A DNA stretch of 16,033 nucleotides, taken from a virus (Duplodnaviria > Heunggongvirae > Uroviricota > Caudoviricetes). The stretch's first letter is position 1, and each line of letters begins with the position of its first letter. Position numbers: made by a program. The stretch spans positions 1 through 16,033 of IMG/VR virus record IMGVR_UViG_2778261151_000016, one strand, 5' to 3'. This document shows, piece after piece, positions 1 through 3,000 of this stretch.

Positions 1-3000
1 GTCACCCCGGCGTCCGCGGAAGATGAACAGATGCCCGGAGAACGGGTCATCCTTCAGGACGTTCTGAACTTTTGATGCCAGGCCGTTAAAACCATTTCGC
101 ATGTCGGTGATACCGGCAACCAGCCAGATACGCGAACCGGCAGGGAGAGATATCATCAGTGGCTGCTCCCTTTCATTTCGCGGATAAGTGTCTGTAATAA
201 CGCCGGTGTCAGTTCACCTTTCAGCCTGAGAGTTCCGGCCGACAGAACCAGCTCACAGCACAGACTGTCGGGCATCTGTTCAGGTATCTGCACTGGTGCC
301 GGGATTTTATTATCCGGCTCCGGAGTTAACGTCACGGGAAGTAGCGATGTTTCATGTTCGCCGGTCGGCTGCAGGCCGCCGTTACGCCAGAGATGCCGCC
401 AGTTAAAGAGCAGGTTATCGTTGATTCCGTTCTCACGAGCTATTTGTGCGACACAGGCACCGGGTAAAAGAGTTTGCTGAACAAGTCTCCATTTAAACTC
501 CGGTGAAAATCGGTTCCGGCGGTTTTTCTCTGTTTTCACAGTCTGAGTTACTGTCGGGGCTGAAGGGTATCGCCCCGGGAACAAAGCCCGGGCCAGTTGC
601 ACGCAGGAATATTCCCCGGAAAGAGGCCAGTCAGTGAATACCTGGTGAAATCGCCTCACCAGAGAAAAAATGGCGGTTTTGCTGATACCGGTCTGCGCAG
701 AAATGCGCGGGTACGACAGTGACTCGTCAAATCTCAGTTGTAGCACACGCAGGATCAATTCCGGATTGTCTGCCAGTACCGCTTTTCGTGCATTCATCTT
801 AAATGTCCCTTTACTGCGAAAATGGACATTAGTATCGGAAACAGGAAAGGGAGGCGAAAGACGGTTTAAATGAGACGGTTACCCCCCAAATAAAAAGGCC
901 TGCGATTACCAGCAGGCCTGTTATTAGCTCAGTGATGTAGATGGTCATTTAATACTCCGTCACGTTTTCCTGTCGCCACGCCTCGTCATATTCCGATTTC
1001 GGCATATTGGCGATGTAGCTATATGGCGATCCTGATTCAAGTTGCAGGAACTGGTGCGATTGCTCGTCAAGGAACAACGGGACACCACCTTCCCAACCTT
1101 CGCCGTTACGTTGTTTTTCAAGCATCAAAACAGATGCCGGAGATGCCAGTAGCTGTTCGTCCTTCTCTGACATCTTTTCACCACTCTGAACTCTCTGTAA
1201 CGCTCTCTCGCGAGCCTTGTTACGCCAGATGATGAAAAGGTTGTCTGTCAGGTCTGTTATCGCTCCAGAGCCTTTTACGTCCATTTTCCCGGTTGGTTTT
1301 TCTTCGCTGTCTCCTTTTCGCGAGTGAGTAACGAGAATGACGTGGGAGTTTGTTTTGTTTTTGAAGTCGCAAATCGAGTCAACAAACGCCTTCTGCCCGT
1401 TATAGTCATCGTCGCCTATGCCACATTTCATCAGGCTGTCGATGATGAATAACTGGATCCCGTATCGGCGGCGAGCGTAGTCGAATATTTCGATCAGCCT
1501 GTCGGCTTTCGCCGTTCCGGTCAGGCCAAACACCCAAAGTCTTTCGTCATAAAATTTAAATGCAGAGTCAATTTCCAGCACTGGCGGCATCTTGCAGCAC
1601 GTTGCCTGACGGGTAAGTCGCTTAAGGAGAATACCAGGCTTCAGCTCAAGTGACGCGATGCACGTCTTCACACCCTGACGCATTGCCTCAAGTGCCATAT
1701 GCCCGACAACCTCGGTGTTATGCGTCGCCACATATCCCCTGGTTACATACAGGTGGCGAGGGTGATCGACCATAATACACAAGCATTCTGCATTGCCGAT
1801 TTTTTCAACATTCCTGACGAATACCCCACAGCCCTCGAATCGATGCGCAGTTAATCTGCCATTGAGTCGTGGTGAACGGATGGCCTCCCTGATTTCTCTT
1901 GTCAGTCTGATTCTTGCCTCGTATGAATCCATCCCATGCCGCTTATCGTCCTTGTATGTGTATGTCACGCCAGTTTTAACTCGCGTCCGGCATGACCCGC
2001 CGAGTGAGTTAACCAGTTGAACAACCCCATTGCGCAGTTCTTCACTTGCTGAGGAAAAAACAAGCGTTCCATCCTTCTCGACATACCCATCCGTTTCAAG
2101 CAGACCACACAGCATGCCTATACGCGTTGATTTATTTGCGGAAAAAAACACACGAGGGATGAATTTGTTTTTTGCTGTGCACCCCATTAGTCCATAACCT
2201 CGCAGGGTCTCCATGAGTGGATTTACCTGACCACGCGCCGTTGATATCAGCCAGTCCTTACCATCTCCAGAGAAGTTGTAATCAGGCAGTTCAGCCTTCA
2301 TACGCTCGATCATGTATGGCTCGACGTTTGAAAACTTCACGCTCCCATTGCTAAGACTACCATCCCCGAGAAGGGAGCCGATAACCCATGCTAATAGCTC
2401 TGAGTGGTCGCCAAAGTCACCAGTTATTTCAGGAATCCTAACGCCATTTTTGTGCCTCTTCGTTTCACTCAACCGCTTCAACCCGAAGGTATCTATCACG
2501 CGGCGTTTCTCGCCTTTCGTGAATCCACGACTAGTGACCTCCCATAGGTGATCGCCTGCGCAATCAACATAACGACCATCTTCAAATGTGACTCGGTAAA
2601 CATCTCTAACACCCTGCGGGAATATCCCAGTGACAGTTGACGGATTGCCGTCTACTGACGCCACCTGATCGCCAATTTTTACATTCCCGTGAGTAGTCCA
2701 TGTCCCATCAGCTAAAAGAATAGGCTCATTCAGTGGGCATGCCTTTCCGTGACCGTTCACACCATTGACCAGCGTCAACTCTGCCTCACGGAACTGGAAT
2801 TTATCTGCCAGAGATTCCCACGGTGGATTAAACAGATACTGCTGCTTGCCGTAGAAAGCGTTGATAGTGTCCTGGTAAAACTCTCGCGCACTGTAGAGTT
2901 CTTCAGGATCGAAGTAGGATGCCGTGCCGATGTACTGCCAGATTTCATCCTCGGTAACACCGTTCATCAGGCATTCGTTGATGTCTTTGTACGGCAGAGT

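Follow-up and report, generated by a model that had tools for sequence, protein, structure and literature searches.

The gene P product encoded in the 16,033-nucleotide caudoviral stretch analysed here (IMG/VR record IMGVR_UViG_2778261151_000016, hereafter the window) very probably carries a class 3 intein, residues Ala372 to Asn713, lodged in its Walker A motif, which would leave the precursor by class 3 splicing and spread by LAGLIDADG homing. The sequence evidence supports the reading of an in-frame, LAGLIDADG-bearing element that splits the P-loop of a Toprim primase joined to an SF4 helicase. The gene P intein is already known, having been published in 2012; among class 3 P-loop inteins, a very abundant family, there is nothing unusual about it.

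The host open reading frame has the 968 codons that had been reported for it and occupies 949..3855 of the minus strand, with its stop codon at 949..951. In nucleotide sequence the gene is ~99% identical to Stx2a_F403 and to gene P of two Stx2 phages, Min27 and phi24B, and its product combines a Toprim primase with a T7 gp4-like SF4 helicase, with the intein inside. Pfam Toprim_2 was detected in the precursor (E 7.7e-12) and AAA_25, weakly, in the C-extein (E 2e-4). An intein-free homologue aligned with T7 gp4 over residues 192-539 (E 2.7e-23) and with Twinkle (E 6.5e-14), its GhGKT falling on the GmGKS of T7 gp4; the host protein thereby shows the N-terminal Toprim domain and the RecA-fold helicase domain with a GxGKS/T Walker A motif that mark SF4 primase-helicases. 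The N-extein (residues 1-371; 2743..3855, minus strand), delimited by alignment with intein-free Sf101 gp45, contains the primase/Toprim region and closes with GVNGHGK (2743..2763, minus strand), the first half of Walker A by alignment to the GmGK of T7 gp4. The C-extein (residues 714-968; 952..1716, minus strand) comprises the remainder of the RecA-fold helicase domain. The Sf101 and T7 gp4 alignments agree with the proposal of the earlier note that the element interrupts the P-loop and that its removal leaves a coherent Toprim primase plus helicase; judged from sequence, what remains is a coherent T7-gp4-like protein with a predicted mature length of 626 aa. Calculated masses are 109.1 kDa for the precursor, 71.1 kDa for the ligated exteins and 38.0 kDa for the intein.

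Alleles without the intein fixed its boundaries. Alignment with the Sf101 protein, which is 626 aa long and elsewhere near-identical to that of the window, revealed an exact insertion of 342 aa (1026 nt) between Lys371 and Thr714 of Walker A. The Sf101, mEp043, APC_JM3.2 and Stx2_EH2086 alleles read GVNGHGK/TEVV at this point (the slash marks the insertion site) within flanks that are 98-99% identical; the epsilon34 allele likewise lacks the intein, and the uninterrupted insertion-site sequence is CTGGTCAATGGTGTGAACGGTCACGGAAAA followed directly by ACGGAGGTTGTCGGGCATATGGCACTTGAG. Because the uninterrupted GHGK/TEVV contains no Ala, Ala372 is part of the insertion, and the boundaries are exactly Ala372 and Asn713 (1717..2742, minus strand), enclosing a HINT domain split by a LAGLIDADG endonuclease. 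The element is thus an in-frame insertion at a conserved host site for which uninterrupted homologous alleles exist, as expected of an intein. The earlier note had placed it at 1717..2739, as 341 aa beginning with Cys373, and had predicted a clean insertion of that length relative to intein-free homologues: the clean insertion and the C-terminal Asn713 hold, whereas the start moves to Ala372 and the length found against Sf101 is 342 aa.

The same junction bears on the splicing chemistry. Cys373 directly follows GVNGHGKA, as had been pointed out, and Cys or Ser is the first residue of most inteins, both of which would suit a class 1 intein of 341 aa in which Cys373 performs the N-S acyl shift and Ala372 is retained in the mature protein. 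Since the insertion starts at Ala372, however, Cys373 is not the N-terminal Cys that the note took it for but position 2 of the intein, and it does not fit the part of a class 1 nucleophile. Excision from Cys373 would leave GKAT, with an extra residue within a Walker A motif whose GKT aligns to the GKS of T7 gp4. In relatives of the intein, position 1 is Ala and position 2 either Gln or Leu, and the WCT signature of class 3 inteins is complete. We therefore rejected class 1 chemistry from Cys373, on the intein-free junction, the WCT signature and the residues of relatives at positions 1 and 2, and consider it extremely unlikely.

Splicing blocks A, B, F and G are all recognisable on the minus strand. 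Block A, ACPLNEPILLADG (2704..2742), has the non-nucleophile Ala372 at position 1 and Cys373 at position 2. Block B, GRYVDCAGDHLWEV (2536..2577), aligns with 'aaHqW' of MchDnaB1 and contains His436 (B:10) and Trp438 (B:12, the W of WCT). Block F, ECLCIMVDHPRHLYVT (1741..1788), aligns with 'vrCvevdnpaHLY' of the same intein and contains Cys693 (F:4, the C of WCT), and block G with the +1 residue, GYVATHN/T (1714..1737), contains Thr711 (G:5, the T of WCT). The THN followed by Thr714 that had been noted earlier is present in the translation: His712 and Asn713 close the intein, and Thr714 both opens the C-extein and supplies the Thr of Walker A. The element accordingly has the block B His, the C-terminal His-Asn and the nucleophilic +1 residue of an intein. 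With regard to class 3, for which the criteria and the role of the F:4 Cys come from the literature (Tori et al. 2010), position 1 is Ala372, as fixed by the intein-free allele, and not a Cys, Ser or Thr nucleophile; Trp438, Cys693 and Thr711 have W67, C124 and T143 of MchDnaB1 as their aligned counterparts; and the +1 position, which in this class is Thr or Ser and rarely Cys, is Thr714. The closest solved structures by sequence are the class 3 inteins MchDnaB1 (6RIX/6RIY, E 2e-9) and MsmDnaB1 (6BS8), whose class and catalytic triad are documented in the literature, and the His/Trp pair, the F:4 Cys and the THN of the window's intein all align with class 3 DnaB intein structures. Cys693 of block F is the predicted initiating nucleophile, completing the class 3 WCT signature. 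A point against the assignment is the Ala at block B position 7, where Thr or Ser would be expected; this position is variable across the aligned family and was dispensable in the MP-Be DnaB intein (Tori et al. 2010).

A word-indexed search for homologues of the intein alone found no more than 5 proteins; the exhaustive search of cluster representatives that took its place matched 2788 of them at E <= 1e-30. Together with the matches to Pfam LAGLIDADG_3 (E 1.6e-7) and to intein structures in the PDB (to E 2e-9), this puts the identification of an intein well beyond chance. Residue frequencies were counted in 139 aligned inteins (138 aligned relatives). His B:10, Trp B:12, Cys F:4 and the terminal Asn occur in 139/139 and Thr G:5 in 137/139. 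The +1 residue is Thr in 126, Ser in 12 and Cys in 1 (Thr or Ser in 138/139), and position -1 is Lys in 123/139. At position 1, 101 of the 139 have Ala and no more than 3 have Cys; at position 2, 105 have Gln and 28 have Leu, with Cys found solely in the intein of the window, which in this respect is unlike the class 3 DnaB inteins.

We infer splicing, class 3 chemistry and endonuclease activity for this protein. Translation would produce a 109-kDa precursor with a split ATPase site, in which Cys693, helped by His436, Trp438 and Thr711, would attack the K371-A372 bond to give a thioester branched intermediate. The N-extein would then be transferred to the side chain of Thr714, cyclisation of Asn713 would set free the 38-kDa intein, and an O-to-N shift would yield the 71-kDa active enzyme with its GKT P-loop intact. 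No published experiments on the gene P intein were found in the literature; indirect support for splicing comes from the infective isolates phi24B and Min27, which carry the intein allele, and from the use of the term 'intein' in the phi24B paper.

The condition of gene P copies bears on whether the element might instead be a non-splicing remnant, with the gene non-functional and host DnaB/DnaG or another prophage providing replication. An IS66-family element lies directly downstream of the precursor gene in the window's prophage, so that the window's copy may belong to a prophage in decay, under relaxed selection. Truncated copies exist in Shigella flexneri, and a class 3-like intein pseudogene lacking the F:4 Cys, Arth_1007, is documented elsewhere. 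Against a remnant, His436, Trp438, Cys693, Thr711, His712, Asn713 and Thr714 are all intact, and every one of the 79 copies in complete E. coli genomes is full length and at least 99% identical. Allelic differences, as counted against phiKp_30, are mostly synonymous (37 synonymous and 10 non-synonymous codons), and the allele is carried by the infective phages phi24B, Min27 and phiKp_30, the last a Klebsiella phage isolated from sewage. With the catalytic residues intact and the E. coli copies full length, a non-splicing domain insertion was rejected as highly improbable.

The spliceable class 3 intein that we favour also contains the two LAGLIDADG blocks described earlier. Motif 1 (block C), LAWVIGSLLGDGSL (residues 488-501; 2353..2394, minus strand), aligns with PI-SceI LAYLLGLWIGDG, and motif 2 (block E), IGMLCGLLETDGYV (residues 579-592; 2080..2121, minus strand), with PI-SceI FLAGLIDSDGYV. 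Both LAGLIDADG helices end with a catalytic acidic residue, Asp498 and Asp589, aligning to D218 and D326 of PI-SceI and kept in 116/139 (block C) and 138/139 (block E) of the aligned inteins. Upstream of block E, the block D Lys562 (2158..2178, minus strand) is equivalent to PI-SceI K301, KN..IP falling on the PI-SceI KNIP. Pfam LAGLIDADG_3 (PF14528) matched above its cut-off (E 1.6e-7). An AF2 model of the intein (pLDDT 93.2, pTM 0.92) has the alpha-beta-beta-alpha-beta-beta-alpha pseudo-dimeric fold inside the HINT domain, and the top Foldseek matches are to PI-SceI (TM 0.71-0.74, E 2e-18), with further matches to other endonuclease-bearing inteins, to I-DmoI and I-Tsp061I and, for the HINT part, to class 3 DnaB inteins. 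By sequence and predicted fold, the central domain is a PI-SceI-like endonuclease with two LAGLIDADG motifs and a presumed cleavage activity. Residue 487 is Leu in the window and Pro in other alleles.

Such a domain, through Asp498 and Asp589, would cleave intein-free alleles at their P-loop codons, and repair from an intein-bearing copy would carry the element from one lambdoid replication module to another. Of complete E. coli genomes, 210 have an uninterrupted site alongside the 79 with the intein; the empty sites were counted with a 99-nt query whose outer parts are approximate, giving identities of ~94%, and the contiguous versus split counts are usable. Intein-bearing and intein-free alleles coexist among closely related Stx2a Traversvirus phages with flanks that are 99% identical. 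Extein SNPs, compared between 4 alleles with the intein and 4-5 without it (the 720R6 record, which has Ns, is unusable beyond +351), formed a mosaic in which no long tract of co-conversion flanked the insertion site; the evidence for homing is therefore indirect. A weighty alternative, which we consider somewhat less likely than not, is that splicing works while the endonuclease is dead or target-less, and that the pattern arose by vertical descent, ordinary mosaic exchange of whole replication modules or precise loss rather than by homing. The SNP mosaic would fit that account, as would the movement of lambdoid replication modules as blocks, the presence of the gene in three backgrounds (Traversvirus, Lederbergvirus and mEp043) and the variability of the block D Lys position across the aligned inteins. 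On the other hand, the two catalytic Asp residues are kept, as is the Lys that corresponds to PI-SceI K301, the fold prediction for the domain is of high confidence and without decay, and the two allelic states are found within one phage genus. The +1 Thr codon ACC also tracks the intein (4/4 bearing versus 0/5 intein-free alleles), its third base being the only co-segregating extein position in the alleles compared. Finally, a paralogous intein, 50% identical over 342 aa, occupies the same P-loop position in the unrelated DnaB-type helicase of TL-2011a, Stx2a F578 and ~50 Stx2a phage records, which points to past site-specific invasion. This paralogue has the same GK/A...THN/T junction, WCT residues and LAGLIDADG motifs, whereas its host is a DnaB-like protein of 797 aa without Toprim, in a different replication module.

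Among solved structures, the element is matched best in sequence by class 3 inteins in the P-loop of DnaB (mycobacteriophage Bethlehem, M. smegmatis DnaBi1 6BS8, M. chimaera DnaB1 6RIX), which have in common with it the site after the Walker A GK, Thr or Ser at +1, Ala or another non-nucleophile at position 1, His65 and Trp67 in the same numbering, the F:4 Cys and the terminal THN. It differs from them in its host, a gp4-like primase-helicase fusion and not DnaB, and in keeping a complete LAGLIDADG endonuclease, since the Mch and Msm inteins of known structure are mini-inteins; identity to these two is low and confined to the HINT halves. The two-domain layout, HINT plus a two-motif LAGLIDADG endonuclease, is common to PI-SceI (yeast VMA1), PI-PfuI, PI-TkoII and Tli/Pho VMA. 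PI-SceI, however, is a class 1 intein (Cys1, Cys+1) of a V-ATPase with ~15% sequence identity to the window's intein, and at 454 aa, compared with 342, it has a larger DNA-recognition region.

The gene P intein of phi24B (vB_EcoP_24B) and Min27 and the primase inteins of Shigella flexneri ShP-Sfv are the same element as that of the window, which shows only allelic differences from phi24B/Min27 (gene, 99% nucleotide identity; intein, 98.8% protein identity). InBase presumably also had an 'EP-Min27 Primase' entry, and a 2011 J Bacteriol article by Tori and Perler probably lists the gene P intein among those of class 3. The earlier note knew of no inteins in lambdoid prophage replication genes of enteric-type bacteria. 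That novelty falls away, the phi24B intein in the same gene having been reported in 2012, and no kind of intein is commoner than that in the P-loop of phage and bacterial helicases. Smith et al. (2012) wrote that 'P 24B carries an intein', at residues 372-702 and with a HintN domain; their C-terminal boundary is imprecise compared with 713, and they gave neither mechanistic class nor endonuclease type. InBase had entered Shigella prophage primase inteins by 2009, and Tori et al. (2010) listed these among inteins without the standard N-terminal nucleophile.

In the closely related M. smegmatis DnaBi1 intein, also class 3 and in a P-loop, H2O2 blocks splicing reversibly by way of a disulfide that includes the catalytic Cys. 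In the gene P intein, an extra Cys lies two residues ahead of Cys693 (ECLC), and Cys373 lies beside the scissile bond; by analogy, oxidative stress might trap the precursor, although we regard a conditional switch on Stx-phage replication as quite improbable. If it did operate, trapped precursor would delay phage DNA replication and the rise in Stx gene dosage after prophage induction. With the gene P intein in print since 2012, the present analysis brings no conceptual change. The element is nevertheless convenient for tests of class 3 splicing and LAGLIDADG homing, being native to E. coli, found in a medically relevant phage and available in natural alleles with and without the intein. There is also a consequence for annotation: the precursor is listed in databases simply as 'toprim domain-containing protein' or 'replication protein P', names that hide the intein and the 626-aa mature enzyme. 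Two plus-strand open reading frames, 1793..2020 and 2312..2551, lie antisense to the strongly supported precursor coding sequence.

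The element that interrupts the prophage primase/helicase of the window is a genuine, well-formed intein, and an ordinary one for its family. Its host gene is a 968-codon open reading frame on the minus strand (949..3855), set in a lambdoid prophage early region (int, bet, N, cI, cro, cII and an O-like HTH protein). A Pfam search of the product returned Toprim_2 (residues 209-296, E 7.7e-12) and a weaker, sub-threshold match to AAA_25. The gene shares 99% nucleotide identity with gene P of the Stx2-converting phages Min27, phi24B (vB_EcoP_24B), Stx2a_F403, Stx2a_F451 and phiXuzhou21, is 98.3% identical to a gene of Klebsiella phage phiKp_30, and was found in 296 of 5426 complete E. 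coli genomes. The identical protein is named 'MULTISPECIES: toprim domain-containing protein [Enterobacteriaceae]' or 'putative replication protein P' at NCBI, and its 90%-identity cluster (1494 members) spans E. coli, Shigella and Salmonella.

The limits of the intein were fixed by comparison with intein-free alleles. Sf101, mEp043, APC_JM3.2, vB_EcoP-720R6, Stx2_EH2086 and Stx2_EH2085 gave two-piece matches with 64% query coverage and flanks ~98.5-99% identical, as did Salmonella epsilon34 at 87% identity. Aligned with the window protein, Sf101 gp45 (626 aa) leaves a single clean 342-residue gap, A372..N713, between K371 and T714. The junction DNA reads ...CACGGAAAG/GCATGCCCA... on the 5' side and ...ACGCATAAC/ACCGAGGTT... 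on the 3' side, and the empty site reads ...CACGGAAAA/ACGGAGGTT...; with no repeated residue at either junction, the insertion can be placed in only one way. The intein is thus 342 aa long (window 1717..2742, minus strand). All strings quoted in an earlier note were found in the translation: GVNGHGKA followed by Cys, THN followed by Thr714, LAWVIGSLLGDGSL at residues 488-501 and IGMLCGLLETDGYV at 579-592. The clean P-loop insertion proposed there was borne out, but its extent of 341 aa (1717..2739) was one codon short. The uninterrupted protein aligns to the T7 gp4 primase-helicase (E 2.7e-23), and also to Twinkle, with its GhGKT falling on the gp4 Walker A motif GmGKS, so the intein lies inside Walker A, between Lys and Thr.

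The start at Cys that had been claimed was incorrect, since the intein-free alignment puts Ala372 at position 1 and Cys373 at position 2. A class 1 reading from Cys373 was rejected, as an extra Ala would remain in the P-loop (GKAT). Class 3 inteins lack an N-terminal nucleophile and carry a Trp/Cys/Thr triplet at B:12, F:4 and G:5, usually with Thr or Ser at +1 (Tori et al. 2010, and other literature). Among solved structures, the best matches were the class 3 mini-inteins MchDnaB1 (6RIX/6RIY, E 2e-9 to 9e-9), with MsmDnaB1 (6BS8) at E 1.4e-6. The paper describing these structures confirmed class 3 and reported a Cys124-His65-Thr143 triad together with Trp67, with GK as the last residues of the N-extein. 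In the alignments, AGDHLW of the window intein lies on AAHQW of MchDnaB1, and CLCIMVDHPRHLYVTRGYVATHN lies on VRCVEVDNPAHLYLAGRGMVPTHN; His65, Trp67, Cys322, Thr340, His341 and Asn342 in intein numbering correspond to protein residues 436, 438, 693, 711, 712 and 713.

NCBIfam gave weak, partial matches only, to intein-containing models. An exhaustive profile-free search matched the intein to 16,506 cluster representatives (E <= 1e-3), of which 2,788 reached E <= 1e-30, the majority being DnaB proteins ~800 aa long in which the intein follows ...GK. Across 139 aligned copies, the window intein included, His at B:10, Trp at B:12, Cys at F:4 and the C-terminal Asn are each present in 139/139; Thr at G:5 is found in 137/139, Thr or Ser at +1 in 138/139 and Lys at -1 in 123/139. 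Position 1 is Ala in 101/139 and Cys in just 3. By sequence, the window intein has every feature of class 3. Its Cys at position 2 (Cys373, window 2737..2739) is the sole case among the 139, Gln occupying the position in 105 and Leu in 28, and Cys691 (window 1783..1785) lies two residues ahead of the catalytic Cys693. Redox regulation through the catalytic Cys is known for a related class 3 DnaB intein; any relevance of Cys373 or Cys691 to such regulation here is speculative.

By analogy with the MP-Be DnaB, Dra Snf2, Msm DnaB and Mch DnaB inteins, we infer that the 109.1-kDa precursor would have its ATP site split by the intein. Cys693 would attack the K371-A372 bond to form a Block F thioester branch, the N-extein would move onto Thr714, and Asn713 would cyclise; an O-to-N shift would then yield a 71.1-kDa primase-helicase with GKT restored and a free 38.0-kDa intein endonuclease.

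The predicted endonuclease domain looks intact, judging from sequence and a structural model. Pfam matched LAGLIDADG_3 at residues 579-634 (E 1.6e-7, passing its cut-off) and, more weakly and below threshold, Hom_end_hint and Hom_end. The central region aligns to PI-SceI, an endonuclease of the same type, with both acidic residues kept (D218 on Asp498, D326 on Asp589) along with the Lys of block D KN..IP. A confident AlphaFold2 model, built on an alignment of 63 sequences, had a mean pLDDT of 93.2 and a pTM of 0.92. PI-SceI ranked first in a Foldseek search of the PDB (E 2e-18, TM 0.71-0.74), above the Tli and Pho VMA inteins, PI-PfuI and PI-TkoII; the HINT part was matched by the class 3 Mch and Msm DnaB inteins and the endonuclease part by I-DmoI and I-Tsp061I.

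About 50 further records of Stx2a phages carry a paralogue of the intein, 50% identical, within a DnaB-type helicase unrelated to the primase/helicase (L003:1898-4291, the 'DNA helicase' of Stx2a phage F578; also TL-2011a). It occupies the same P-loop position (ARPGMGK/AMALSEG...YIVTHN/TELA), and the two inteins share GK/A...THN/T junctions, the Trp/Cys/Thr triplet and the LAGLIDADG residues.

The earlier note had taken an intein in this setting to be new, which was mistaken: one in gene P of phi24B was already published (Smith et al. 2012). Tori et al. (2010) also mentioned ShP-Sfv-2a-2457T-n and ShP-Sfv-2a-301-n Primase from InBase, described as stopping short of Block F and lacking the usual nucleophile at the N-terminus. 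These match the many S. flexneri members of the 90% cluster (P0156-P0169) that are truncated at ~574-586 aa, inside the intein; the element was thus already known. DnaB is the top intein host, DnaG/primase is among the hosts and the P-loop is a recurrent insertion point (Novikova et al. 2016). The literature searched offered no experimental work on this intein. The present analysis contributes the precise limits of the element, evidence that places it in class 3, assignment of its endonuclease domain to the PI-SceI type, and estimates of allele frequency.

Intein DNA was detected in 79 complete E. coli genomes, always chromosomal, full-length and at least 99% identical; a contiguous empty site was detected in 210, so that ~27% of alleles carry the intein. 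Stx2a Traversvirus phages likewise include both alleles, with flanks 99% identical. This pattern, together with the paralogue and the allele differences below, fits what a homing element would leave, without proving current endonuclease activity. The Thr+1 codon (window 1714..1716) is ACC wherever the intein is present (4/4 alleles), and intein-free alleles have ACG or ACT (5/5); its third base is the only position co-segregating with the intein among the alleles compared, and these show no longer co-conversion tract. For Lys-1 (window 2743..2745), the window, Min27 and FDAARGOS_943 use AAG, but phiKp_30 and all intein-free alleles use AAA. These synonymous junction differences, seen in a small sample, may reflect either very limited co-conversion or a change that makes the target site immune.

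Codon changes separating the window gene from that of phiKp_30 are largely silent (37 synonymous, 10 non-synonymous). Of the first 41 nucleotides of the phiKp_30 intein (gene at L009:201-3107), 13 differ from the window (including N376D, D383N and T385E), against 16 in the remaining 985 nt, which suggests that this 5' end is recombinant, from a more diverged intein allele. Codon 487 (window 2395..2397), just ahead of the first LAGLIDADG helix, encodes Leu in the window and Pro in FDAARGOS_943 and phiKp_30, and differs in Min27 too; a 203-aa S. flexneri fragment (P0001) is 100% identical to the window allele.

In the Min27 record (NC_010237, L001:7001-9909), the gene is annotated as two CDS, 'P' and 'DNA primase', because it is divided by two insertions of one base each, both within A/C-rich stretches of the C-extein. 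Sequencing error probably accounts for these insertions, which would in turn explain the '87% identity' of Min27 to phi24B P in the literature. An IS66-family element (window 1..882; ORF 156..797, minus strand) starts ~66 bp beyond the stop codon of the primase/helicase gene; the accessory protein TnpA of the element matches NF038385 of NCBIfam (E 2.5e-81). Position 883 is also where the window ceases to match the Min27 and FDAARGOS_943 prophages; together these indicate that the nin region has been interrupted or replaced, and the window prophage may be defective.
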